Below, one piece after another: positions 1 through 17,115 of a DNA stretch of 21,533 nt. A model generated the notes under the pieces. The model was not told where the DNA came from and made no database searches. It was given only the letters and a program-made list of their open reading frames with translations. The translations under genes were made by a program, and so were the position numbers. Within the stretch, counting starts at the first letter, position 1; every line of letters starts with the position of its first letter. The stretch lies in the IMG/VR virus record IMGVR_UViG_2713897073_000007; one strand, given 5' to 3'. Source of the stretch: a virus. Lineage: Duplodnaviria > Heunggongvirae > Uroviricota > Caudoviricetes.

Positions 1-996
1 TTAACGAACCAGCCAGACCAGCATCAGGATAATCGCGACTAACAGTATCCACAGCGCGGGACGCGTTGCCATATTTTGCAACGTGTCCATCATCGGTGGA
101 AAAGGATTAAGCAGCGGTTGCATAACACGCGGATCAATCCCTTTAACCCGCCGTTGATAAAGCTGATTAAGAATATCCTCGGCCTGGGCAGAAGAAAGCG
201 ATGATTGCGCAGAAAGACCATATTTTTGCTGGATATATGCCGATAACGCCGCCAGTTCACTGGCATCTAAAGGTTGTTTTAGCGTCATCTGTAGTGATTC
301 CAGCGTCGGCGTATTTTGCTGGCTTAGCGTCTGACGCGCCTGTAGCCAGGTCACCAGATGGTTAAACAGTTTCGCTGGAATTAACTCGCCATCTTTCACC
401 CCGGAAAGTTCCAGCATCGATTGCCAGATCTGTTTGCTGGGTTCCCCCGTTGCCGCCGCAAGTTTGGTCACCAGCTGTTTTAGCGCATTGTGCTCCGCCG
501 GTAATAAAGGACGGTCGGTCGCCTCGCGCTGCTGTGGTTGCGGAATAACCATCTTCCCTTCCTGCAACAGGGTGAGAATGGTTTTTAATTGCTCCGGTGA
601 GAGCTGATTCAGCGGCGTCTGACCAAAGTTATGACGGATATAATCCGTGACCGCCTGACGATTATTCCCCAGACGTAAATACTCCCCTAATTGCGCTAAA
701 AGCTGGCGGGCAGAATGGCTTTTTTGCGCGGCCAGCAGACGTTGCGCCAGATTATGCTCAGCGGCAGGGAAGTGACGCGAAAGCAGCGGTGAATCTCCCG
801 ACAGACCAATATCGTGCCTGATACCCGCCCACAGTTCTGCTCTTTGCTGTTGCGTCAGTGAGGTCACTTTCGTCATTAAGCTTTCCAGCGAAGTACGTTG
901 CTGACTGGATAAAGGCTGATTGCCCGTGCCAGACGGCAGATTATCTCCCTGACCTGGTGGTTGCCCAGGAGGAGGGCCGGAAATAGGTTGTATCAT
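1..996 (-). CDS. flk: Flk-like tail-anchored inner-membrane protein (flagellar biosynthesis regulator Flk family); probable host core gene flanking the island
   Basis: 331-aa ORF with Pro/Gln-rich N-terminus (MIQPISGPPPGQPPGQ...) and a single hydrophobic helix at the extreme C-terminus (ALWILLVAIILMLVWLV); size and topology match Flk. Identification is from memory of the family, not a search. Confidence 0.45.
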   Translation of the reverse strand: MIQPISGPPPGQPPGQGDNLPSGTGNQPLSSQQRTSLESLMTKVTSLTQQQRAELWAGIRHDIGLSGDSPLLSRHFPAAEHNLAQRLLAAQKSHSARQLLAQLGEYLRLGNNRQAVTDYIRHNFGQTPLNQLSPEQLKTILTLLQEGKMVIPQPQQREATDRPLLPAEHNALKQLVTKLAAATGEPSKQIWQSMLELSGVKDGELIPAKLFNHLVTWLQARQTLSQQNTPTLESLQMTLKQPLDASELAALSAYIQQKYGLSAQSSLSSAQAEDILNQLYQRRVKGIDPRVMQPLLNPFPPMMDTLQNMATRPALWILLVAIILMLVWLVR

Positions 997-1199
997 TACG
1001 TATCCTTATACCTGAAATCTTCGCAAGTATGCCTGGCCGCGAGATTATGGCACACTTGTCCGGTTAACTCTCGTCTCATACAGGTAACACAAACGTGAAA
1101 ATCCTTGTTGATGAAAAAGATGTTGATTTAACTTTTTGATATAAAAGGATTTGTATCGGCGCATGTCCACGCAGTGACCACATTTTCGAGTTATAGATA

Positions 1200-1231
1200 A
1201 CACAAAGCCCGTTTTCACGGGCTTTGTGTTA
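1200..1231. terminator. Perfect 13-bp inverted repeat hairpin (AACACAAAGCCCG - 6 nt loop - CGGGCTTTGTGTT) just downstream of the minus-strand accessory operon and upstream of flk
   Basis: Read directly from sequence; GC-rich centre with U-rich stem ends; lies 15 nt after the stop at 1246. No clean T-run follows, so terminator function is inferred. Confidence 0.35.
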
Positions 1232-1245
1232 TCTGTGATTGTGGC

Positions 1246-2156
1246 TTAGCCGCATGATTTATACTGTTTCCAGTTACAGGCTTCTTGAAGCGGTTTTAGC
1301 GTGGTTGACAGGCCGTTTAAATTGAAAGTTGCACTTACAGGGCTTTCATTATAAGGGGTTATTTTTGCATACATTTTGTTTGAGTTGGCTAGTTTTCTGA
1401 TGAAGTTAATGTCATTGCCTTTATAAAAAACAGCCTTTGTATCTGTAGATACTAGCCAGTTTCGCTCAACTGCTTTCTGTTTATCAAGGCGATACAGCAT
1501 GCTGGTTTGTTCAAGGCCTAAATATACATCCCAATTAAGAAATACTTCGGTTTTCTTTTCTCGGCAAGCTATAAACAGAGTAGGGGTAACCGCTTCTCCA
1601 AATGGAGTTCTTATATAATCATCACTTTCTAACGATAAAATTACATTTTTCGAATCATCAATTGGCGATGTAGTAATGGATGTGTGCCATTTTCCTGTGT
1701 CTGTGGCTTTCTCTAATTTTGATTTAGATTGCGCAACTTTTTCCTGTGGAAATGGTTTATCGTAGCAGTTTATTCTAGTTTCTTTATCGTTTTCTGCTCG
1801 GCATTTAGATATCTCAGAAAGATTTGGTTGCTGAGCCTCTGTTGTTACTAGCTGTTTCGCTTTAGATTTTGAGCTTACAGGCGGAGTAAATGTTGGAGAA
1901 AAAAACGGTCATAACAAGATAAACGTCTGTCATCATCTTTCTCATCAGGGCATTGATCTCTGCTTTCGAATTTTTCAGCAACTGTCGTTCGAGTCGGTTG
2001 TATTGACTTATCATAACAAGAAAGTCTTTCTTTATTATTTTCTATTGCTCGGCACTGGAGTGATGACTTAAAGTTATTATGCTCAGTTGCTGCGTGAGCA
2101 GGTAGCACACTAATTGATATAAATGATGCACCTATAGAAATAATCATATTTTTCAT
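1246..2156 (-). pseudogene. Secreted Cys-motif repeat protein interrupted by a frameshift at a homopolymer (ORF 1875..2156 carries the signal peptide and two C-x8-9-RLxCYD motifs; the frame open from 1908 down to 1246 carries a third motif and about 220 further codons)
   Basis: N-terminal signal peptide MKNMIISIGASFISISVLPAHA-A. Motifs CRAIENNKERLSCYD, CPDEKDDDRRLSCYD in frame A and CRAENDKETRINCYD in frame B. Frame B has no ATG start of its own before 1500 and opens immediately after a stop at 1909-1911. The A7 run at 1899-1905 (T7 on the coding strand) sits exactly where the frames switch; one extra base would fuse them into an ORF of about 300 aa. Confidence 0.55.
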
Positions 2157-2160
2157 TTTG

Positions 2161-2493
2161 TTATCCCTTTGGTTTAGTAAGAAATACTAAATTTCCGATA
2201 ATGATATTGCAAATAACCCATAAGCCTCCAATAGCAATTAAACCTAAGCCCGTACCAATAACTGTACCGGCTTTTTCGGCATCGGATGTGGCGTTGTTTA
2301 TTATTTCACCCACCTCTCTTAGCCCAACACAAATCGTGTAGATTATAAAAATATTAAATAATATGAAAAAATACTTAATGAGTTCTCCAAAAAATGAACG
2401 TTTAAGTTTTTTCAGTTGTTTGCCACAAGCAGGGCAAGACAATACTGAATCGATCACCTCTTTCTGGCATTCAGGACATTTGATTAATGCCAT
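2161..2493 (-). CDS. Zinc-ribbon membrane protein (N-terminal CPxC...CPxC ribbon followed by two predicted transmembrane helices), AT-rich accessory gene
   Basis: ORF-track ORF 2161..2538; preferred start at the internal Met of MALIKCPECQKE..., which is preceded by AGGAGG at 8-nt spacing. Motifs CPECQ and CPACGK; hydrophobic stretches FFILFNIFIIYTICVGL and LGLIAIGGLWVICNIIIGNLVFL. Ends 4 nt before the downstream gene start at 2156 (operon). Confidence 0.6.
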   Translation of the reverse strand: MALIKCPECQKEVIDSVLSCPACGKQLKKLKRSFFGELIKYFFILFNIFIIYTICVGLREVGEIINNATSDAEKAGTVIGTGLGLIAIGGLWVICNIIIGNLVFLTKPKG

Positions 2494-2640
2494 ATAATCT
2501 GCCTCCTTTGGCTCTCTACTAGCTGACGTTTGTAACAAAACATTTTGATTTTATCAGACTTTTTATTGATATGTGTCAATTGATTAGCTGGTATAGAGTG
2601 AGACAGGATGCCTTATCGACCTTACTCTGGCAACTGATTG

Positions 2641-2660
2641 ACGGGGGATTGCTCCCCCGT
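2641..2660 (-). terminator. Stem-loop ACGGGGGA-TTGC-TCCCCCGT located 10 nt 3' of the hok-like stop; probable 3' structural element or terminator of the hok-like mRNA
   Basis: 8-bp perfect inverted repeat read from sequence; position relative to the toxin ORF matches the structured 3' end known for hok mRNAs. Confidence 0.4.
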
Positions 2661-2670
2661 CGCGGTTTCC

Positions 2671-2811
2671 TTACTGCTTACACTGTAAGAACGCCGCAAA
2701 CTCCGCTCCCCAGAAACTCATCCGTATTTCACACAGCGAACCGTGCAGCATCCAGATGATGAGGATTGCCGTCACGCAGAACGTGATGGCCGTAAGCGAT
2801 TTTTGCGACAT
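2671..2811 (-). CDS. hok: Hok/Gef-family type I toxin, 46 aa (MSQKSLTAITFCVTAILIIWMLHGSLCEIRMSFWGAEFAAFLQCKQ); below the ORF-track length cutoff
   Basis: Hand translation from ATG at 2811-2809 to TAA at 2673-2671, anchored on the ORF-track frames 2729..2941 and 2571..2759. Strong SD AAGGAG 8 nt upstream. N-terminal transmembrane helix followed by the family signature SLCEIR and a C-terminal E-x-AAF-L-x-C motif, as in Hok, Gef and HokA. Confidence 0.7.
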   Translation of the reverse strand: MSQKSLTAITFCVTAILIIWMLHGSLCEIRMSFWGAEFAAFLQCKQ

Positions 2812-2941
2812 AGCACTTGCTCCTTTTCCGGAGAGGCGCTAACCTTTCACTTGTCAAGGTAATGCGGTTAGGGCCTCGGTTAAACAGATATGTTTTCCGG
2901 GGCCTTTCCACATCCGGCCTTCGGGTATTCCCTCCGACCAT
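2729..2941 (-). CDS. mok: mok-like overlapping reading frame (70 aa) that starts upstream of and overlaps the hok-like ORF in another frame
   Basis: ORF-track ORF 2729..2941. The architecture (a roughly 70-codon frame overlapping most of hok, start about 130 nt upstream of the hok ATG) matches hok/mok/sok loci. The sequence itself is low-complexity, so the call rests on architecture. Confidence 0.45.
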   Translation of the reverse strand: MVGGNTRRPDVERPRKTYLFNRGPNRITLTSERLAPLRKRSKCYVAKIAYGHHVLRDGNPHHLDAARFAV

Positions 2942-3001
2942 CAGCCGAAAGGCACCCGCACGTAATCTATCGCTTTTTTGTTACTCCGGCAATTCTGCCT
3001 G

Positions 3002-3262
3002 TTAATCCTGAGGTAAAGGCAAACTCATCTGATTGTTTCCCCTGTGTGAAGCTGGCAGCTCATGCCACGGGATACCTTCTGATGAGTGAACGCCGGAGGC
3101 GTGTTTCGATGTGAATTTATGGAAAGCTTCCAGTGTTGAGAAGCATACGCCGCATTCCAGATTGTTACACTGGTAATACTTTTGCCGCACGGTGTTTGAA
3201 TCATTTTCCGGACGACTGGTGCGGATACGGGCAGATGCGCCACAAAGCGGACAACGGAACAT
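3002..3262 (-). CDS. ogr: Ogr/Delta-family zinc-finger late-gene transcription activator
   Basis: MFRCPLCGASARIRTSR...YYQCNNLECGVCF matches the P2 Ogr pattern MFHCPLC...RTSR...HQCQNVNC as recalled; Cys4 zinc finger; sits directly downstream of gene D as in P2. At 86 aa it is longer than P2 Ogr (72 aa). Confidence 0.85.
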   Translation of the reverse strand: MFRCPLCGASARIRTSRPENDSNTVRQKYYQCNNLECGVCFSTLEAFHKFTSKHASGVHSSEGIPWHELPASHRGNNQMSLPLPQD

Positions 3263-3304
3263 AGCGACCTCCCTTAACGTGGTGCTGCCGCTATTCTAAG
3301 TTGC

Positions 3305-4571: not shown

Positions 4572-5756
4572 ATGAGTGAAACTCGTTTTCATGGTGCCCG
4601 TGTTACGGAAAATACCGACCTGGTAACAGCGATTAACGATGTTGATTCCAGCGTTATCGGTATCGTGGCAACGGCGGATGATGCGGACGCGAAGCTGTTC
4701 CCGCTGAACAAGCCCACACTGCTGACCCGCGTCAATGACGTGCTGGGAAAATGCGGGACAACGGGGACGCTTTATCGTGCGCTTAAGGCCATCGCAGACC
4801 AGGTGAGTACAAAGGTGATCGTCGTTCGCGTGGCTGAACACAAAGAAGAAGACGGAAAAACGCAGGATCAACTGGTTATCGGTGGTTCTGAATCTGACGG
4901 CAGCTATACGGGGATGTATGCGCTGCTTGTTGCAGAGCAGGATGAAAGCATCGGATACCGTCCGCGTATTCTGGCCGCGCCGGAGCTGGACACGGAGGCG
5001 GTAACAAAATCCCTGTGCGTGATTGCGGGTAAACTGCGCGCGTTTGTGTATGCCTCATGTCACGGCTGTAACACGATGGCTGAGGCGATTACCTACCGCC
5101 AGAAATTCAACGAACGTGAGGTGATGCTCTTATGGCCGGACTTCATCGCCTACAACCCGAAAAGTGGCAAAAACGAAACGTTCCCCGCGCCTGCCTATGC
5201 GTGCGGCCTTCGTGCGTACATTGACCATGAGCAGGGTTGGCACAAATCGCTGTCCAACGTTCCGGTTAAAAATGTGCTGGGGATGTCCAGGCATGTGTTC
5301 TGGTCGTTGCAGGCCGAAGACAGTGATGCCAACAGCCTCAACAACAAAGAAATCACGACCATTATTCGTCGCAACGGGTTCCGCTTCTGGGGCAACCGCA
5401 CACCGGAAACGAACGCCTACATCTTTGAGGTGTATACCCGAACCGCACAGGTGCTGGCTGATTCAATTGCGGAAGCGCAGTTTGAAACCATCGATAGTCC
5501 ACTGACGCCTGCGAACGTGAAGGATGTTATCAGTGCCATCAGGGCAAAACTGGATTCACTGGTGACTGCCGGGAAACTGATTGGGGCGTCGTGCTGGTAT
5601 GACGTGGTGGATAACAGCACCACGAATTTACGTCAGGGGCGTGTGCGTATTCGCTACAAATATACGCCCGTTCCTCCGCTGGAAGACATGGAGCTTTACC
5701 AGTCGTTTACTGATGAATTCTTTGGTCCCGCATTTGCGGTGCTGGGAGGTGCCTGA
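4572..5756 (+). CDS. FI: Contractile tail sheath protein (P2 gpFI family)
   Basis: 394 aa; N-terminal region ...ADDADAKLFPLNKPTLLT... aligns with recalled P2 FI (...ASDADAETFPLNKPVLIT...); SD AAGGGG upstream; followed immediately by the tube gene. Confidence 0.9.
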   Translation: MSETRFHGARVTENTDLVTAINDVDSSVIGIVATADDADAKLFPLNKPTLLTRVNDVLGKCGTTGTLYRALKAIADQVSTKVIVVRVAEHKEEDGKTQDQLVIGGSESDGSYTGMYALLVAEQDESIGYRPRILAAPELDTEAVTKSLCVIAGKLRAFVYASCHGCNTMAEAITYRQKFNEREVMLLWPDFIAYNPKSGKNETFPAPAYACGLRAYIDHEQGWHKSLSNVPVKNVLGMSRHVFWSLQAEDSDANSLNNKEITTIIRRNGFRFWGNRTPETNAYIFEVYTRTAQVLADSIAEAQFETIDSPLTPANVKDVISAIRAKLDSLVTAGKLIGASCWYDVVDNSTTNLRQGRVRIRYKYTPVPPLEDMELYQSFTDEFFGPAFAVLGGA

Positions 5757-6852: not shown

Positions 6853-9646
6853 TATCCGGGTCGCTTTCAGCGCCGTTGACAGGCTGACCCAGCCTGCCGA
6901 AAACGCCCGCCGCCTGATGGGGCAGTTTGGTGACTCCATCCAGCGAACGCAGGGGGCGATCAAAAATCTCGAGCGTCAGGCGCGTTCATTTGAGCGCGCC
7001 CGCGACGCTGTCAGTAAAGCGGATGCGGGTATCGTGAAAGCACGACGCCAGCTTAACGCCCTTAATCAGTTACAACGCACGGGTACAGTGCTCAGCGAAA
7101 AACAACAAAAGCTGATGCAGCAGTTAAGCACCCGGCTTGAACGCCTGAATGAATCGCGCACGCGGGAAATTCAGAAAATGCGGGAGCTTGGCGGAGAGCT
7201 GAAACGCCACGGCATTTCCCTGACAGGCAGCGATAACACCATCCAGCAGGCCATCAGACGCACCGAACAGTACAACAATCAGCTTGAACGCGAACGGCAG
7301 GCGCTTGCGCGTGTAACGCGGGCGCGTGAGCGGTATTCGCGCGCGCAGGAAACAGCGGGAAAACTGAAAACAGGTGGTGCACTGGCAATTGGTGCGGCAG
7401 CGGCGGGCGGCTATGCTGCCGGGCGTTTTTTGCAGCCTGCGATCGGGTTCGGGAAAGAGATGTCCCGCGTTCAGGCACTGACGCGAATCGACCAGAACAG
7501 CCCGCAGTTTAAGGCGCTGCGTGAGCAGGCGTTAAAACTTGGCTCTGAAACGCAGTTCACCGCAGGCGATGCCGCCAGTGGGCAGGCATTTCTGGCAATG
7601 GCTGGCTTCACACCGCAGGCCATTCAGGCTGCGCTTCCCGGCGTGCTGAGCATGGCAACGGCTGGCGGTATGGACCTTGGCGAGACGGCAGATATTGGCT
7701 CAAATATCCTGACGCAGTTCGGCCTCTCCGCTGACCAGATGGACCGGGTCGGTGACACGCTTACAGCAGTGTTTACCCGTACTAACACTGACCTTCGCGC
7801 ACTGGGCGAAACCATGAAATATGCAGGTCCGGTGGCGGGTAAGCTGGGAATATCGCTGGAGCAGGCCGCAGCGATGGCGGGCGTGCTGGCGAATATGGGT
7901 ATCAGAGGGAGTGATGCCGGGACGGCAATGCGTGCCAGCCTGGCTCGTCTGGCATCACCGCCAAAGGCGGCAGCAGAAGCGCTGAAAGAGCTGGGTGTGT
8001 CCGTCTCTGATGCGAACGGCAAAATGCGCCCGATGGAAGATGTGCTGGCCGACCTTTATAAAGCCACCCGTAAATACGGGGAAGTTGACCGGGTATCGTT
8101 CTTTAAGGACATTGCCGGGGAAGAGGCTTTCACGTCGTTTATGGCTCTCGTTGATGCGGCGGGTGACGGCTCCCTGCCCAAACTGAGAAAAGAACTTGAG
8201 GGCGCACGCGGTGAGGCTGAACGCACGGCAAAGGTTATGGCCAATAACCTTGATGGCGACCTGAAATCACTCGGCAGTGCATGGGAAGGGCTGCGTATCC
8301 GCATTGCAGATCTGATTGATGGTCCGCTGCGTTCTGTCACGCAGTGGCTCACGCGGGTGGTCTCAAAGGTGACGGCGCTGGCACAGGCCCATCCGGTACT
8401 GACGCGCCAGTTACTGATAGCAGGCGGTGCGCTGCTGGCAATGACTGCAACGGTTGGCTCGTTGTCGCTGGTTATTGGAGTGCTTCACGGGAAGCTGGCC
8501 ACGTTGCGTCTTGGTTTTTCTCTCCTGACCGGATCAATGAATGCTGTCAGGCTCCTGCCAGCACTATGGGGAATGGTGACGGGTTCCGTTTCGTTACTGG
8601 GGGGCGCTATCGGGGCGCTGTTCAGCCCGGTCGGATTGATTGCTGCTGCGTTTGTGGCTGCGGCAGTTCTCATCTGGAAATACTGGGAACCCATCAAGGC
8701 GTTTTATGCCGGGGTGTTCAGCGGGATTATGGAGCGGCTGGCCCCGTTACGCGAAACCTTTGAACGGTTTGGTCCTGTTTTTGACGCAATCGGAAGCGGG
8801 ATAAGTCAGGTGTTTAACTGGTTTAAATCGTTGCTGTCACCGATGGAGTCCAGCAAGGAAACGCTGGATAAATGTACCAGTGCTGGCGAGATATTCGGTA
8901 ACGTTCTTGGCGGTGCGTTACAGCTTGTTCTGACGCCCGCAAAAATGTTGCTGGATACGCTGGCGTGGATACTTGAAAAACTCGGTGTGCTTCCGGATGA
9001 AGCGGAAAGGGCGAGAAAGAAAATCGAAGACGCACAGCGTGCGGCCATTCTTCAGGACAAGGTTGCTCTGTTTCAGGGAGACATTGCGAAAATCAATCCG
9101 CCGAAGTCTGCGGAAAATGGCAATGGCACCGGAGGTGATAAACCCAAAGACAATAAACCGCTCACAGACAGCAATACCGGTACGCTACGCAGACTCAGCA
9201 AAATTGCTGATAACACAGGTAAGCTGGTTGATGAGACGAAAAAACGTATTGGCCCCGGCGATATTGTCTTTAAGAACCTGCCCCGCGCACTTGCCGTTCG
9301 TGGGGAGTGGCAGGAGCGGAAGATTGTGCAGGTCAGTAAGCCTGCCCCCGCAATTAATATCACACCCGTGGTCCCGGCTCCGCTGCCTCCGGCGCTGGTC
9401 CCTGTTGTTGCGGCCAGCTCCCGCCCGGTGGCGGAGGCCATACGATCTCCAGTGGCATCAGTTCCTGTAACTTCCCGTAACCGGGAGCCTGTTGCCTCCG
9501 GATTTGGTGGTGAAATTCATGTTCATCTGCATAACGTTGTTACGCAGAATCCCCGCGAACTGGCGAAACTGGTCGGTGAAATGGTCAGGGCAGAAATGGA
9601 ACGGCGCGCCCGTGCCGGGCGTGGCAGTTTTTACGATAAAGATTGA
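6803..9646 (+). CDS. T: Tail tape measure protein (P2 gpT family)
   Basis: 947-aa ORF; long N-terminal coiled-coil-like region, central hydrophobic segments (LLIAGGALLAMTATVGSLSLVIGVL...), Pro/Ala-rich C-terminus; located between E/E' and U. True start may be the in-frame ATG at 6830 or 6839, overlapping the E' stop. Confidence 0.9.
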   Translation: MSGRHFAAGMQTMKTLDIRVAFSAVDRLTQPAENARRLMGQFGDSIQRTQGAIKNLERQARSFERARDAVSKADAGIVKARRQLNALNQLQRTGTVLSEKQQKLMQQLSTRLERLNESRTREIQKMRELGGELKRHGISLTGSDNTIQQAIRRTEQYNNQLERERQALARVTRARERYSRAQETAGKLKTGGALAIGAAAAGGYAAGRFLQPAIGFGKEMSRVQALTRIDQNSPQFKALREQALKLGSETQFTAGDAASGQAFLAMAGFTPQAIQAALPGVLSMATAGGMDLGETADIGSNILTQFGLSADQMDRVGDTLTAVFTRTNTDLRALGETMKYAGPVAGKLGISLEQAAAMAGVLANMGIRGSDAGTAMRASLARLASPPKAAAEALKELGVSVSDANGKMRPMEDVLADLYKATRKYGEVDRVSFFKDIAGEEAFTSFMALVDAAGDGSLPKLRKELEGARGEAERTAKVMANNLDGDLKSLGSAWEGLRIRIADLIDGPLRSVTQWLTRVVSKVTALAQAHPVLTRQLLIAGGALLAMTATVGSLSLVIGVLHGKLATLRLGFSLLTGSMNAVRLLPALWGMVTGSVSLLGGAIGALFSPVGLIAAAFVAAAVLIWKYWEPIKAFYAGVFSGIMERLAPLRETFERFGPVFDAIGSGISQVFNWFKSLLSPMESSKETLDKCTSAGEIFGNVLGGALQLVLTPAKMLLDTLAWILEKLGVLPDEAERARKKIEDAQRAAILQDKVALFQGDIAKINPPKSAENGNGTGGDKPKDNKPLTDSNTGTLRRLSKIADNTGKLVDETKKRIGPGDIVFKNLPRALAVRGEWQERKIVQVSKPAPAINITPVVPAPLPPALVPVVAASSRPVAEAIRSPVASVPVTSRNREPVASGFGGEIHVHLHNVVTQNPRELAKLVGEMVRAEMERRARAGRGSFYDKD

Positions 9647-11290: not shown

Positions 11291-11835
11291 TCCACGCGTT
11301 GCACACCGTGCACATGCAGTGCGGCAGCAATGGCGGACAACGCCACGTCCTGACCGATAAGCCCCTGCTCAGCCAGCCACTTCCTGAACGACGATTCAGC
11401 CGCAGCCAGAATAGGTTCGGATTCCGGGCCGGGATAAAAGTACAGTTTTGCATTCAGCCGCCATGTCACGATTCTGGCGCTCTGTACGGTCAGGCGGTCG
11501 GCCACCGGGCGGGTATCCTCTGCATTCAGAACGGCACGAACGGTATTAAGCAACGCCTCCGTTGCTGTGCCGTCGCCTTCAGTGGACAGGATGGAAACCG
11601 TCACACAGGCCGGAGACGGGCTGATGGCCCGCGCATCACGCACCAGACCGCTGGCGCTGCGTGCAAAATACTCGTATGCACCTGACGGGCCAGCAACACT
11701 CAGGCCGTCGTACGCCCGCTGCGCCCGCAGTCTCAGCGAGGTGTCGCTCTCCATCACCGCGTCGGTGGTATCCGTTGCCGGAGTGATAACCAGGCGCTTT
11801 GTGTTCATATTGCCCGCGAGGTTGTCCAGGTCTGT
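11248..11835 (-). pseudogene. J: Baseplate protein gpJ fragment lacking the N-terminal third and probably the C-terminal end
   Basis: ORF 11248..11886; the segment TKRLVITPATDTTDAVMESDTSLRLRAQRAYDGLSVAGPSGAYEY...SPSPACVTVSILS...RPVADRLTVQSA...YFYPGPESEPI...LHVHGVQRVEI matches recalled P2 J residues from about 100 to 270. The first 17 codons of the ORF are an out-of-frame read of capsid-gene DNA. Confidence 0.65.
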
Positions 11836-12463
11836 CATCCAGCAGGGATGAGCGCGCGTCCTGTACCAGTGCATCAGCGTTCGCATACTTACCCGCGTGC
11901 GCCACTGTGTTGTCCATGTTGCGGGAAGTCAGCGTCACGTCATTCATTACGCGTTCACTGGCATCGGTTCTGATGTGCTCCAGCCAGCCCACGTTAACGT
12001 CCTGAAGCAGCTTGTTGGTGCTGAAATTGGATTTTTCCGCGTGTGATGTGCCGTTAAAGCCGATCATGATGCGGTCAAGCGCCACCTGCCGGGCAATCTG
12101 TGTGCTGATGCGCGACTGAAAATCGCTGTGAGCCGCCCAGGCATCAAGCTTCGGGTATGAAATAAACGTGTCGTAGTTCACCTGTTCACACTGGTACTGA
12201 CGAGCCTTCATATCGACAGCGTTAATCGGATTACGGCGATCTGTGCCGTCATAACTGGTATTCGTGCGCGCAATCGGCCCGGTGGTGTCCAGGAGAACTT
12301 TTTCGCCTTTCTGGTCAGTTACACCGATTACATTAATTCTTTTCGTAAATTCGGTACTTTCCTTTGAAGCGTTTTCAAAACGCTGTTGTACCGATGGATT
12401 GACGGTAAATCGCGATACCAGCGCAGAAACCGGGATATTGTTAAGCGACGCCTGCTGCGTCAT
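11836..12463 (-). pseudogene. N: Major capsid protein gpN fragment (N-terminal about 210 aa)
   Basis: ORF 11636..12463; FTVNPSVQQ...RINVIGVTDQKGEKV...YQCEQVNYDTFISYPKLDAWA...IMIGFNG...LLQDVNVGWLEHIR...ADALVQDA matches recalled P2 N N-terminal region. Homology stops near 11836, after which the frame reads J-fragment DNA. Confidence 0.65.
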
Positions 12464-12508
12464 GTAGCAGCCCAGCTTGTTACGGGCATTAATTACTCAG
12501 GGGGAGCA

Positions 12509-13765
12509 ATGATTCAGGACGCTTTTGTGCGCCAGCGTGCGCGGCAACTTTACTGGCAGGGTTATCCGCCCGCAGAAATATCACGTCTGATGGGAATAAA
12601 CCCGAACACGATTTATGCGTGGAAAAAACGCGACCAGTGGGATGAAACGCCCCCCGTGCAGCGTGTCACGCAGTCCATCGATGCGCGCCTCATCCAGCTT
12701 ACTGAAAAACAGAATAAAACAGGCGGTGACTTTAAGGAAATAGACCTGCTGACCCGGCAGCTTAAAAAGCTGCATGATGGCCAGCCGGATGTGATGGCCG
12801 CAGGAAAGAAAGGCCGGGCGAAAAAACTTAAAAATCATTTCACGCCGGAACAGATTGCCGCACTGCGGGAAAAAATCATCAGCAGGCTGGAGTGGCATCA
12901 GCGGGGCTGGTTTGACTCCCTGACACTTTGCAGGGAAGCCGGGATACGTAACAGGATGATCCTGAAATCCCGACAGATTGGGGCGACCTGGTATTTTGCA
13001 CAGGAAGCTCTGCTGATGGCGCTGCGTGACGATGTGGCGCAACCTTACCAGCGTAACCAGATTTTTTTGTCTGCGTCGCGTCGTCAGGCGTTCCAGTTTA
13101 AAAGCATTATTCAGAAGGTCGCGGCTGAAGTTGATGTGGAGCTGAAAGGGGGCGATAAAATCATCCTCTCCAACGGCGCAGAGCTGCATTTTCTCGGCAC
13201 TTCTGCTGCGTCGGCACAGTCCTATACGGGCAATTTTTATTTTGATGAATTTTTCTGGGTCAGTCGCTTTGCTGAACTGCGCAAGGTGGCTGGCGCTATG
13301 GCAACCCTCAGCGGACTGCGGCGCACCTACTTCTCCACGCCATCCACCGAAACGCACGAGGCGTACGCCTACTGGAACGGCGACCGCTGGAACGAGAAAA
13401 AGGCCTCGCATAAACGCCAGCGTTTTTCTGTGGACTGGAAAACGCTGCATAACGGGCTTATCTGCCCTGACCGGACTTGGCGGCAAATTGTCACGCTGGA
13501 AGATGTGGTTAATCACGGCTGGAAACACACCGATATCGACGAAATTCGTGATGAAAACACCGAAGACGAGTTCCTCAATCTCTATATGTGTGAGTTTGTC
13601 CGCGAAGGGGAATCGGCATTTAACCTGAATATCCTGATTGGCTGCGGTGTTGACGGATACGACGACTGGAAAGACTGGAAACCTTTTGCTCCCCGCCCGA
13701 TGGGGAATCGTCCGGTATGGATTGGGTATGACGCAAACGGCAGCAGTGGCAACGGCGACACCGTG
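12509..13765 (+). pseudogene. P: Terminase ATPase (large) subunit, P2 gpP family, 3'-truncated
   Basis: ORF 12386..13840; preferred start MIQDAF at 12509 with SD GGGGGAG; Walker-A-like KSRQIGATWYFAQEA; the last roughly 25 aa (RMPYQRRPSRFSFLRTAAKNELTR) are an antisense read of the gpA fragment. Family size is about 590 aa, so roughly 170 C-terminal residues are missing. Confidence 0.7.
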
Positions 13766-15042
13766 CGGATGCCATACCAGCGCAGGCCGTCGCGGTTCAG
13801 TTTCTTGCGGACCGCCGCAAAAAACGAGTTAACCAGGTAATCGCTGGAGTCGCGCATAGTGGCCCCGTTCCATTTGGGATTCGGATGACCGTTCTCCGTT
13901 GTTGCGTGGTATTTTGACGGGCAGGTGACAGTCAGAAACACCGCTCTGTCGCCACGGGCTTCGGCCAGAAGTTCCAGCCCCTTCATGGTGGCCATCATTT
14001 CTGCCTTACGGTGAACCGGGTTACTTACTCCCGCGTAATACACTGTCTCAAGATCAATCGTGAACCCGTCTTCGTTTTCCAGCATGAAACTTTTCAGGAA
14101 ATCGCGTGTTTTCTCGCGCTGTGCGCGAAACTCGCTTAACGCATCCTGGCTCAGATAGGGCGATGTTTTTCTGGAAACCAGACAGGCGGCGCGGAGTTGT
14201 TCTTCTCTCCACTCGCAACGTAACAGCCACAGTTTGCGTTTCCACCATTCCGCACAGGTCAGGCGAAGGATTGCGCCCGGCAGCAGCTCCGTGTCTGGTT
14301 CGTTCCTCCGGCCTTTGTCTGTTGTCAGTGCGTCATAATGCGGAGGCATGGCGTGCAGGTGTAACGCCATGCGGGCCAGCATCTGATACGCCTTCAGCGT
14401 TACATCCATGGTCAGCTCGCCATCAGTCGCACCAAAGCCATCGCAGAGTTTTTCGAAGGTGCTGCTGAACATCGCCGCCGTCATGGTGGCCAGCGTCTGT
14501 ATCTGGTGTTTGTTGAGCTGCGGCAGGTAAAGCAAATCGTCCAGGCGTTCGCGTCCGGCAAGGGAGCGATAACCCGGTGTCAGCCAGTGTCCGTCAGTGC
14601 GATCCAGACGTTCGAATATTTTGCGCAGGGTTCCGCGTGCATAGCGTTCTGCCTGCCAGCTCTTTTTGCCTTTCCGGCGATCGACTTCCTGTTTTTTGCG
14701 CAGGAAGGAGAGGTGGCGAATAAGCGGATCGCGCAGATAGGACGGCAGCAGGCGCAGCGAGGCCATGGCTTCATCCACCGCGCCGCGTGCCTGTCTTCTG
14801 GCGTCTCCTGCCAGCGTGATGGTTTTGTCCTGTTTTTCCTGTGCGTCCAGGCTTTTATTAATCAGGTTGCCCAGTGGCGTGGCAGAGAACGCCGCATCAG
14901 CCTTTTCCTGTCGGCGCTCGTTCTCTGCCTGGTAGGCATCCAGCCAGGAGGAAAGCGCGGATTCAGGTGCGGGGATCCCCGTTCCTTCACGCCCCACTGC
15001 GTGGCGCGGTTGTTGCCAGTCCCTGATGTACTCTGTCGTCAT
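13759..15042 (-). pseudogene. A: Replication initiation protein gpA family (rolling-circle initiator), 3'-truncated after about 428 aa
   Basis: ORF 13582..15042 directly downstream of the early operon; sequence up to ...GLRWYGIRTV is protein-like, the following 58 aa are Pro/Ser-rich antisense of terminase DNA. P2 A is about 760 aa. Convergent with the P fragment. Confidence 0.65.
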
Positions 15043-15048
15043 ACTGAT

Positions 15049-15414
15049 TTACTGCGTCATACCGTTCAGGGTGTCACGGCAAACGGCAGCCAGCCGCTGA
15101 ATTTCCAGCACGGTGTCTTCTGTGTCGGCATAGCGATGTGTGATGCGGATGCTGTCGGCAATCACATCGACGATTGCAGAGGATGGGCGCTGGTAAATGC
15201 CAATAACGGACGGAGTGCCACCTTCAATGCGGTAAAGCCTGTAATTTCCCTCGTGGCTGTCAATCATGTAGCGACCATCAATAACAATCTTTCCGTCAGC
15301 GAGCTGCGGTACAGGCAGGGATTTCAGGTACATGTCATAACGTTCACGCACGCGAACGGCAAGATCACGCTCTGTGTTGAGCAGGTATTCAAGAAAGTCG
15401 TTGGCGAGAATCAT
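15049..15414 (-). CDS. Hypothetical early-operon protein (121 aa), immediately upstream of the A fragment
   Basis: ORF-track ORF; position corresponds to the orf83-like slot before gene A in P2-family early operons; no recognisable motif. Confidence 0.5.
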   Translation of the reverse strand: MILANDFLEYLLNTERDLAVRVRERYDMYLKSLPVPQLADGKIVIDGRYMIDSHEGNYRLYRIEGGTPSVIGIYQRPSSAIVDVIADSIRITHRYADTEDTVLEIQRLAAVCRDTLNGMTQ

Positions 15415-15486
15415 TGCGGCAATCCTCTTGTTACAGATGTGCGAAGGCCTCCTGCCGCAAGGTGCAGGAAAGGCCCGGAACAGGAA

Positions 15487-15717
15487 TTAATGGAGTTTGT
15501 TTTGCTGCTGGATGAGCTGCTGAAGCTCGCGCAGATCATCCGCCAGATAACTGAAAACAGCGGATGAGTAGAGGTTTGAAAGTTCGCAGCTACGCTCATG
15601 CAGCATATTGATGTGCATGATTTTAGCGACGCGGAATGCGCGGGAAAGTCTGCGGTTGATTTCAGTCTGGATGTGACGACGCTCCGCGATAGCGCGGTGC
15701 TGTTTGCGGTTTGCCAT
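15487..15717 (-). CDS. Hypothetical small basic protein (76 aa)
   Basis: ORF-track ORF; Arg/Lys-rich N-terminus (MANRKQHRAIAERRHIQTEINRRLSRAFR) suggests nucleic-acid binding; function unassigned. Confidence 0.4.
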   Translation of the reverse strand: MANRKQHRAIAERRHIQTEINRRLSRAFRVAKIMHINMLHERSCELSNLYSSAVFSYLADDLRELQQLIQQQNKLH

Positions 15718-15896
15718 GGTGTGGCCTCTTTGGTTGTAAGTTTTGAAAACTCACCATCCAGAGCTGCGAAACTGTGGGTGGCGAGACGTACGGGGTTCGC
15801 AGTACCGGCAACCAAAGAACCCGGCCCGACCGAAGTCGGCCCCGTACGCCCCGCCATAATTCTGACGCGAAAAAAACGTGGCAATACAGTACGCAC

Positions 15897-15917
15897 AAAA
15901 AAACCGCTGGCGCGGTT
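15897..15917 (-). terminator. Hairpin ACCGC-NNNN-GCGGT followed by a T7 run on the minus strand
   Basis: Read from sequence (plus strand shows A7 then ACCGCTGGCGCGGTT); lies in the 367-bp non-coding gap between the SPFH module and the 76-aa gene. Confidence 0.4.
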
Positions 15918-16053
15918 GTGCGCTTTGGTTGTCAGCAGGCTGCGAAACCCGGCACCCGTTTTATGAGGTGCAGCGAAAATGTAACCTGACTGATTGCGGC
16001 ATGGCAAGCGGTTTTTTTGTGAGAACGGCATACTAAAAAATCCTGATACTGCT

Positions 16054-16078
16054 CCGGCCAGCGGTTTGCACTGGCCGG
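16054..16078 (-). terminator. 8-bp inverted repeat CCGGCCAG - 9 nt - CTGGCCGG starting 7 nt after the SPFH lipoprotein stop
   Basis: Read from sequence; a T6 run follows on the minus strand only after a 13-nt spacer, so intrinsic-terminator function is uncertain. Confidence 0.35.
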
Positions 16079-16084
16079 GTGTCA

Positions 16085-16915
16085 TTACTTCACGGGAACG
16101 AACGGAACAGCGGTGTTACTGGTCATGTATTGCGGCAGCGTGCCGTTCCATTTGTTGATTGCTTCCAGCTCCATAACGCCGGGATTCTGGCGCAGAGCTT
16201 CGCCGCGTAAACGAATGGCGTCGGCTTCAGCCTGGGCTTTTGTGCGAATGGCATCGGCCTGTCCGGCAGCTTCTGCGCGCAACATGTTGGCTTCTGCTTC
16301 GCGTTGCTTGACTTCCTGTTCGCGTTGCAGGGTTTTCTGGTTTGCCGTGACTTTGGCGTTAATGCTGTCGATAACGGTTGGCGGATATTCCGGTTTACCG
16401 ACATAAGAGAGGCTCATGACCTGAATACCGATGGGGGTCATCTCTTCCTGAATATCTTTAAGTGCTGAATCCAGCAGTTCAGACTTACCACCGTCGATAA
16501 ACTTATCGGTGGTCATTTTGCTGGCCAGTCGGTTGAGTGCATCGGCGATCTTCTGGCGCAGGTCAGTGTCGGTAATGTCGTCCACGCCTTTGCGGTAGGT
16601 CTGAAACACCGTGGTAACTTTGGATGGATCAACTTTGTAGGCCACGCCGATGTGATAGCCGATGGTTGTGCCGTCACTCATCTGGAAGTTGAACGGCTCA
16701 TCGTAACTCTTCATTTGTTTGAAGGTCGGGAAGATGTAAACCTCTGTATTCCAGCCTGTCCAGTAGCGGCCAACGCCAACCACTTCACCGACGCCTTTGT
16801 CGTCGCCCAGTTTGTTGACTTTGATGCCCACATTACCTGGCTCAACGCGATCGCAACCAACCAGCAGGATGGCGGCAAAAAGCGGGAGAATCTGAAAGAG
16901 TCTGAATTTCTTCAT
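16085..16915 (-). CDS. SPFH/band-7 (stomatin-prohibitin-like) domain lipoprotein
   Basis: 276 aa; signal peptide with lipobox (LLVGC); central band-7-like region; C-terminal Ala/Glu/Gln-rich coiled coil (QREQEVKQREAEANMLRAEAAGQADAIRTKAQAEADAIRLRGEALRQN). Start overlaps the upstream gene stop (ATGA). Confidence 0.75.
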   Translation of the reverse strand: MKKFRLFQILPLFAAILLVGCDRVEPGNVGIKVNKLGDDKGVGEVVGVGRYWTGWNTEVYIFPTFKQMKSYDEPFNFQMSDGTTIGYHIGVAYKVDPSKVTTVFQTYRKGVDDITDTDLRQKIADALNRLASKMTTDKFIDGGKSELLDSALKDIQEEMTPIGIQVMSLSYVGKPEYPPTVIDSINAKVTANQKTLQREQEVKQREAEANMLRAEAAGQADAIRTKAQAEADAIRLRGEALRQNPGVMELEAINKWNGTLPQYMTSNTAVPFVPVK

Positions 16916-17115
16916 TGTTTGATTTCCTTGATGTACTTACTGAAAAGGCGAACAACGCCTGCCGGGTACAGCATGGCAATGAAAATTCCCAGCAATACCA
17001 GGAAGGAGCTGTCTGATGAAATCATTCGGGGGAGTAGTCCTGCATACAGAATGAGAGAGACGAGGACGCATACCAGCGCCCACATGTATGCGCGAAACCA
17101 GGTCTTTTTGTTCAT
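16912..17115 (-). CDS. Small membrane protein (67 aa, two predicted transmembrane helices), translationally coupled to the SPFH lipoprotein
   Basis: Hydrophobic segments WALVCVLVSLILYAGLL and FLVLLGIFIAMLYPAGVV; 4-nt overlap with the downstream start. Confidence 0.6.
   Translation of the reverse strand: MNKKTWFRAYMWALVCVLVSLILYAGLLPRMISSDSSFLVLLGIFIAMLYPAGVVRLFSKYIKEIKQ

Follow-up and report, generated by a model that had tools for sequence, protein, structure and literature searches.

The gap at positions 15718-16084 of a 21,533-nucleotide (nt) viral DNA (IMG/VR record IMGVR_UViG_2713897073_000007, Caudoviricetes; this whole stretch is hereafter called the window) is very probably a self-contained cassette for RNA-based immunity, of the same type as P1 immI and P4 immunity, carried in the early operon of a decayed P88-like prophage. 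An Rfam scan of the whole window returned exactly two matches above the gathering score, both on the minus strand and both inside the gap: an isrK RNA and, in tandem with it, a C4 antisense RNA, each matched to its curated covariance model from end to end. The two RNAs and the leader of the gene that follows them share a three-way complementarity, which is maintained by co-variation across related cassettes. The initial annotation of this DNA had proposed that the gap might encode a small RNA or carry a promoter that restarts transcription. The first proposal is borne out by two RNAs rather than one; the second is refined, in that a conserved sigma-70-like promoter is present while the main function appears to be antisense control of the downstream gene. 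The parts of the cassette, in the predicted order of transcription, are the following.

16007-15978, minus strand: sigma-70-like isrK promoter, with -35 TTGCCA (16007-16002), an 18-nt spacer and -10 TACATT (15983-15978)
15971-15897, minus strand: IsrK-type small RNA (RF01394, 65.9 bits, gathering score 50, model positions 1-77 of 77, E = 2.4e-12)
15861-15774, minus strand: C4/CI-type antisense RNA (RF01695, 87.1 bits, gathering score 45, model positions 1-87 of 87, E = 2.8e-16)
15771-15725, minus strand: a'/b' target copy in the mRNA leader, counterpart of P1 a'/b' and of P4 seqC
15717-15487, minus strand: gene for a 76-amino-acid (aa) derepression protein, the putative regulated gene (Pfam PF25738, 29.5 bits, cut-off 27)

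The isrK and C4 RNAs and their target site

The scaffold of the C4 RNA consists of a 17-base-pair (bp) closing stem, hairpin 1 (CCGAC-UUCG-GUCGG) and hairpin 2. The latter carries a 12-nt loop bearing the b2 sequence CUUUGGUUG (15817-15809), and the a2 sequence CUGCGAA (15802-15796) lies on the junction strand; the RNA is bordered by conserved flanks, AAUUAUGG on the 5' side and CCACCC on the 3' side. The initial annotation had described nested inverted repeats here, enclosing CCGAC-CGAA-GTCGG. These repeats were found with arms at 15779-15795 and 15840-15856 (17 nt, 88% complementary), and they are the closing stem of C4 together with its first inner hairpin. Structure prediction for the minus-strand RNA 15861-15774 gave -49.8 kcal/mol (z = -3.92), a value equalled by one of 200 shuffled sequences.

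The IsrK RNA comprises a 5' hairpin, a second hairpin with the a1 sequence UUCGCAG (15946-15940) in its loop, a single-stranded linker in which the b1 sequence CAACCAAAG (15931-15923) is located, and a Rho-independent terminator at 15917-15897 with a 6-bp stem and U7 (terminator scan). A minus-strand hairpin with T7 had been noticed at this last place; it is present, is listed as terminator-like in the scan and is the IsrK terminator, so that the T7 hairpin is part of a different RNA from the nested repeat. Under permissive settings a weak match to c4-a1b1 (RF03163, 19.6 bits) covered the 5' half of IsrK, which is the counterpart of the P4 seqA leader and of the P1 a1/b1 leader. According to the promoter scan, the isrK promoter stops 7 nt short of the point where the isrK model begins, placing the putative start at about 15971, and promoter and terminator, both conserved, would delimit an RNA of about 75 nt. 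A second promoter-like site at 15884-15856 (TTGCCA, 17 nt, AATTAT) was rejected because its -10 coincides with the conserved flank on the 5' side of C4 and its -35 reads TCGCCA in many variants of the cassette; the start of such a transcript would fall inside the C4 stem. Within 15300-16500, eight terminator-like sites were detected against 1.7 expected, an approximately five-fold enrichment, and the structures of this region go well beyond what chance would produce.

The leader of the derepression gene contains a' (UUCGCAG, 15770-15764), a spacer hairpin and b' (CAACCAAAGA, 15736-15727), and b' overlaps the Shine-Dalgarno sequence AAGAGG (15730-15725), which lies 7 nt before the ATG at 15717. 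The b2 and a2 sequences of C4 are exact complements (9-10 nt and 7 nt, respectively) of the bipartite sites in both IsrK and the leader. The sequence CAACCAAAG is present in IsrK (15931-15923, minus strand) and in the leader (15736-15728, minus strand), and the C4 loop contains the complement, which makes only three occurrences in the 21.5 kb. For the bipartite motif TTTCGCAG-N-CAACCAAAG there are exactly two, in IsrK and in the leader, where none was expected. In the minimum-energy fold of the long transcript, the helix between a1b1 and a2b2 forms in cis. The leader hairpin taken alone (15773-15718) was not more stable than shuffled sequences (z = -1.15).

The spacer between a' and b' (15737-15763) forms a small hairpin, GUGAGUUUU-CAA-AACUUAC, and in variants such as L014 it is replaced by another sequence capable of pairing (GGUGA...UCACC). 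This hairpin may draw a' and b' as near to each other as a1 and b1 are in IsrK.

The derepression protein encoded downstream is 29% identical to the epsilon protein of P4 (BLASTP, E = 1e-8), which itself scores 170 bits on PF25738.

Co-variation across related cassettes

Homologues of the derepression protein led to 83 further loci, 80 from IMG/VR and three from reference genomes; a collection of genome contigs with one genome per species contained only four derepression loci, and the diversity came from IMG/VR. The cassette was found upstream of the derepression gene in all 83 further loci. Across 47 unique cassettes, substitutions cluster in exactly six segments, namely a1, b1, b2, a2, a' and b'. 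Pairing was tested in an alignment of 43 distinct cassette sequences. Between a1b1 and a2b2, standard pairs accounted for 100% over 16 pairs, 11 of which had changed on both sides; the cells changed on both sides numbered 170 against 45 ± 5 in shuffles, and a partner slid out of register was only 27-52% paired. Between a2b2 and a'b', 97.9% were paired over 17 pairs, with 10 changed on both sides. The internal stems of C4 and IsrK (39 pairs) were 99.6% paired, with slid controls at 36-47%, and the five stem pairs that had changed on both sides were all within C4. The -10 of the isrK promoter was invariant in the same alignment, and the -35, which is covered by the 47-variant alignment, hardly varied there. 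Judged from these alignments, the pattern is the signature of what would be an antisense RNA using its recognition sequences as a private code on a constant scaffold.

The specificity alleles are numerous: the 87 cassettes contain 14 b2 loops and five a2 types in 17 mosaic combinations, with re-assortment of the a and b types. The alleles of phage P88 are CUGUAGUUG for b and GUGGAAA for a. Four genomes were found to carry two cassettes, and in this small sample the b types differed in three genomes and the types were identical in one. The differing b types hint at heteroimmunity between co-resident cassettes, for which four genomes are too few to conclude.

The same variability bears on the idea that IsrK, C4 or both mainly act as Hfq-dependent trans regulators of host genes, and that the prophage remnant has been retained for this reason. 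Rfam describes the family as Hfq-binding, a property for which Gifsy-1 alone provides the experimental evidence; the cassette is intact despite the heavy decay of the prophage, and 1417 of 5426 complete Escherichia coli genomes contain related sequence. However, the seed-like segments, which are hypervariable, change only in step with one another; this fits a private code and not a conserved host target, and we regard a host-directed function as improbable. To our knowledge, no host target of IsrK or C4 is known, and no search for host targets was made.

The substitutions also bear on the status of a 224-aa open reading frame (ORF) at 16085-15411 on the minus strand, which the initial annotation had recognised and had judged unconvincing. 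Read as a real protein, it could point to a frame that is open in the window and in 36 of the 43 variants, to an ATG that overlaps the SPFH stop codon (TAATG), and to residues 35-126, which match Pfam Phage_ASH (PF10554) with 30.1 bits (cut-off 26). This match corresponds to nt 15983-15708, exactly the span of isrK and C4. The variable columns in the Ash frame are spread evenly over the three codon positions (34/42/39), whereas the adjacent derepression gene shows the expected excess at third positions in the same loci (15/12/29); coding constraint on the translated protein was therefore not detected in these loci despite the profile match. Furthermore, seven of the 43 variants are frame-shifted or contain a stop, the substitutions are compensatory at the RNA level, and the ORF starts in an SPFH insert that is absent from about half of the loci. 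PGAP itself labels 16031-15768 as an incomplete "ash family" pseudogene, and the P4 ORF that matches PF10554 is the old 'cI' ORF over the CI RNA (P4 8168-8710). A protein-coding function for this ORF is thus highly improbable, and the ORF is most likely a translated by-product of conserved RNA genes, as its substitution pattern suggests. PF10554, which served as the 'epsilon' marker in work on P4-like satellites (PMC8628076), and the 'ash family' pseudogenes of PGAP both seem to track the RNA locus and not the epsilon protein (PF25738).

In other phage records, too, the cassette lies under protein annotations: an over-extended 'Rha' coding sequence covers it in the mEp460 record (2141-3292), and an opposite-strand hypothetical gene, gp13, covers it in the P88 record (5379-5567). 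These cases suggest that mis-annotation of the cassette is routine.

The proposed circuit and its alternatives

By analogy with the characterised systems, the cassette would work as follows. Transcription from the constitutive-looking promoter at 16007-15978 would initiate at about 15971, and the majority of transcripts would end at the IsrK terminator to give the IsrK RNA of about 75 nt. Read-through would carry C4 (15861-15774), which would be cut from the precursor, with RNase P acting at the 5' end, and act as a repressor, by analogy with P1 and P4. The unpaired b2 (in the 12-nt loop) and a2 (in the junction) of C4 would then bind a' and b' in the leader of the next gene. Since b' overlaps the Shine-Dalgarno sequence, this binding would block translation of the epsilon-like derepression protein, a putative anti-repressor, and polarity would probably silence the 121-aa gene and the replication gene A further downstream as well. 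Because IsrK carries a copy of the target, it can sequester C4 in cis or act as a decoy in trans: its a1/b1, identical to the target, would hold C4 in an inactive intramolecular helix within the precursor, or, alternatively, IsrK would lift the block in trans, as shown for the IsrK of Gifsy-1. The a and b sequences would be the determinants of specificity, that is, of the immunity type. The identity of the two RNAs, their complementarity, its co-variation and the gene order are direct results of the present analysis, whereas we infer from these analogies where the transcripts end, how C4 is processed, which way the regulation runs and that it is polar on gene A.

An alternative weighting of these steps follows P4 more closely, with the pairing of C4 and its target mainly terminating transcription early, before the replication gene is reached, so that the cassette would be a device for replication immunity. 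The mechanism of P4 immunity is summarised in PMC4825925. In gene order the locus follows the left operon of P4 (seqA/isrK, CI/C4, an epsilon homologue and a replication gene), and a replication gene lies downstream in both phages. The overlap of b' with the Shine-Dalgarno sequence, as in P1, nevertheless points to translational control first, and the terminator scan gave only weak terminator-like matches between C4 and the derepression gene. We consider that premature termination has a real but limited chance of being the principal mode. The two modes are compatible and not exclusive, because a block of translation can cause Rho-dependent polarity.

In another alternative, modelled on Gifsy-1 and to which we assign a better, though still not quite even, chance, the short IsrK would be decisive as a trans activator that remodels the read-through transcript or C4, turning on the anti-repressor and prophage induction. 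The a1/b1 of IsrK is fully complementary to a2/b2 of C4 in 43 of 43 variants, the cis helix of the minimum-energy fold resembles helix b-I of Gifsy-1, and the isrK-C4 tandem is also present in Gifsy-1, where trans-activation was demonstrated (PMC4825925). On the other hand, the coupling in Gifsy-1 proceeds via orf45, which ends at the anrP start, while the equivalent frame here continues for 149 codons and overlaps the derepression gene out of frame. In addition, a'/b' is as strictly conserved as a1/b1, although a pure activator model does not need it.

Several observations weigh against the proposed antisense control of the derepression gene. Homology is the basis for the start site, the efficiency of termination, the processing of C4 and the proposed sign of regulation. 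Considered by itself, the IsrK fold was not better than shuffled sequences (z = -0.87). A duplex-energy scan of the window with the C4 loop segment did not single out the targets, as chance sites at 424-473 (minus strand) and 7711-7750 (plus strand) scored as well as the true IsrK site; energy alone is non-discriminating, and we therefore relied on the exact motifs and on co-variation. The prophage is defective and its gene A is truncated, so that the circuit may perhaps have lost its original output. Finally, activation by IsrK in Gifsy-1 involves a small ORF that overlaps C4, a detail that may not be transferable, as the corresponding frame here has no stop near the derepression start codon.

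Relatives, prophage context and the flanks of the cassette

Among the closest known systems is the satellite P4, in which both Rfam families recur with order and strand unchanged (isrK 60.8, C4 74.9 and c4-a1b1 44.1 bits). Epsilon, of the same family (PF25738) as the protein of the window, follows directly, and the replication gene lies further on; the order of the P4-type operon (seqA-like leader, CI-like RNA, seqC-like site, epsilon-family gene, replication gene) is complete in the window. The RNA region is mis-annotated as protein in both, as 'cI' in P4 and as 'Ash' here. In contrast, P4 is a satellite, whereas the window element belongs to the P2-family helper-type phages. The spacing is also tighter in the window, with 35 nt between IsrK and C4 (107 nt in P4) and 56 nt between C4 and the gene (244 nt in P4), and the derepression protein is 19 aa shorter than P4 epsilon. 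The replication gene is gpA here and the alpha primase in P4, and P4 is without the inverted repeat that flanks isrK.

The P1 immI record shows the order of the window, namely promoter, a1, b1, c4 with complementary loops, downstream targets, icd and ant, and the b site is likewise at the ribosome-binding site of the first ORF. C4 of P1 scores 68.8 bits and c4-a1b1 51 bits, but on isrK the leader, with 35.1 bits, falls short of the gathering score of 50. The regulated genes of P1 are icd and the large anti-repressor Ant, not an epsilon homologue, and the promoter region contains a C1 operator. The a and b sequences are reportedly the immunity-specificity determinants that distinguish P1 from P7, as Citron and Schuster are said to have described in 1990.

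In the Salmonella prophage Gifsy-1, isrK (79.3 bits) and C4 (69 bits; c4-a1b1 48.1 bits) are in tandem, 25 nt apart, upstream of the anti-repressor gene anrP; as the two RNAs are only 25 nt apart, the published "orf45"/STnc1160 overlaps C4, and Hershko-Shalev et al. (2016; PMC4825925) treat this C4 region as orf45/STnc1160. As here, a promoter precedes isrK, read-through of the terminator feeds the downstream genes (Hershko-Shalev et al. 2016; PMC4825925), and the middle of IsrK pairs in cis with the C4 region, a downstream pairing reported to give an inactive structure, while short IsrK activates translation in trans (PMC4825925). IsrK was also noted there as a structural homologue of the P4 seqA RNA (PMC4825925). 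Gifsy-1 is, however, a lambdoid phage, AnrP is unrelated to the derepression protein, and the window has no orf45-like short ORF ending at the downstream start codon. Lambdoid phages of the Stx/mEp460 type show about 70% nucleotide identity over the cassette (143 phage records), where it lies upstream of Rha/antirepressor genes. In mEp460, isrK and then C4 precede Rha, b' abuts an AAGAGG Shine-Dalgarno sequence, and the a and b sequences are its own; the inverted repeat of A-run and terminator is absent, and both the downstream gene and the phage lineage differ from those of the window. Co-occurrence of isrK and c4 in phages was noted earlier, for example in APSE phages (PMC7313666).

Taken together, the feature is real, functional-looking and well explained, and its RNA families and regulatory design are already known. 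The novelty lies in where the cassette sits, in a P2-family phage and with an epsilon homologue, and in how wide a range of co-varying specificity alleles it shows. Helper-type P2-family phages contain a close counterpart of the immunity/derepression module of satellite P4, a finding that bears on the origin of the epsilon-immunity module of P4, and the co-varying a/b alleles offer a ready panel for studying the specificity of RNA-based immunity. An unannotated gap with a mis-annotated pseudogene, present in about a quarter of complete E. coli genomes, can now be read as two RNA genes with a readable target code.

The window as a whole is a decayed P2-family prophage remnant of E. coli that adjoins pdxB. 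The locus is 100% identical in several E. coli strains, including 99-3165, and it is 93% identical to phage P88 (genus Xuanwuvirus). The early operon on the minus strand runs from cox through genes for a MarR-type winged helix-turn-helix protein, an Ead/Ea22-like protein, a small membrane protein and the SPFH lipoprotein to isrK and C4, and then to the 76-aa derepression protein, the 121-aa protein and the replication endonuclease A. The features that flank the cassette are as follows.

16054-16078, minus strand: stem-loop just past the SPFH stop codon, with arms CCGGCCAG and CTGGCCGG (-20.3 kcal/mol, z = -3.76, 0 of 200 shuffles)
16021-16008, minus strand: A-run CACAAAAAAACCGC, directly upstream of the -35 and at the left edge of the conserved cassette
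15414-13582, minus strand: downstream genes of the same predicted transcription unit (the 121-aa protein, then gene A)
15414-15049, minus strand: 121-aa protein of unknown function (phrog_3237)
15042-13582, minus strand: replication endonuclease gene A, truncated (Phage_GPA, 312 bits)

The A-run is a perfect complement of the IsrK terminator's 3' half with its U-run (15907-15894), and the resulting inverted repeat, with extended arms at 15884-15911 and 16004-16031, brackets isrK together with its promoter. The A-run is kept in all P88-type cassettes whatever the upstream gene, and the repeat is absent from P4, Gifsy-1 and mEp460. When a transcript enters from upstream, the minimum-energy fold pairs the A-run with the terminator and replaces the terminator hairpin (z = -3.98). 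In one variant both runs are shortened together (A6/T6), in another the T-run only. On the basis of these folds, the repeat of 14-20 nt could be an anti-terminator in early-operon transcripts; alternatively, the A-run may be an A-tract resembling an UP element.

It is conceivable, although we think it rather unlikely, that P88-like phages run a second, RNA-coded layer of immunity, borrowed from or ancestral to that of satellite P4, in which a hypervariable antisense 'barcode' of at least 17 a/b alleles gates an epsilon-type anti-repressor and gene A. If so, co-resident or superinfecting relatives would be told apart by RNA sequence, and even a prophage decayed down to its cassette could continue to exclude phages of the same allele. 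In addition, the inverted repeat (16021-16008/15907-15894) could be an anti-terminator that depends on the promoter of origin, with transcripts from the early promoter bypassing the IsrK terminator and those from the isrK promoter stopping at it.

The hairpin at 16054-16078, which had also been noticed beside the SPFH stop codon, is present as described. It was rejected as a terminator of the cassette: its U6 run starts 12 nt past the stem and is not adjacent to it, and the hairpin is not listed in the terminator scan, so that it does not qualify as a canonical intrinsic terminator. It occurs only in SPFH-carrying loci and therefore marks the 3' end of an optional insert. Upstream of the cassette, the pair of SPFH and membrane-protein genes was found in about 31 loci and an Ead/Ea22-like gene directly in about 43, with other genes elsewhere; in loci without SPFH, homology to the window starts at about 16021.

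The 121-aa gene was considered as a homologue of P4 orf151 and rejected, as no similarity was found between the two (E = 0.17). Gene A is a partial pseudogene according to PGAP, whereas both the 121-aa gene and gene A are intact in phage P88. In the window, gene A breaks off near codon 430, directly against a gene for the terminase large subunit that lies on the opposite strand and is truncated at its 3' end (11636-15042 for both). This junction fits a deletion across the cos/portal side; in the RefSeq annotation of this defective prophage, capsid and baseplate genes are partial too.

Between the Ead/Ea22-like gene and the cassette, the SPFH lipoprotein gene (16085-16915) and the membrane-protein gene (16912-17115) together make up an optional insert. 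This insert is missing or replaced by other genes in about half of the related phages, and its site behaves like a moron or cargo slot.

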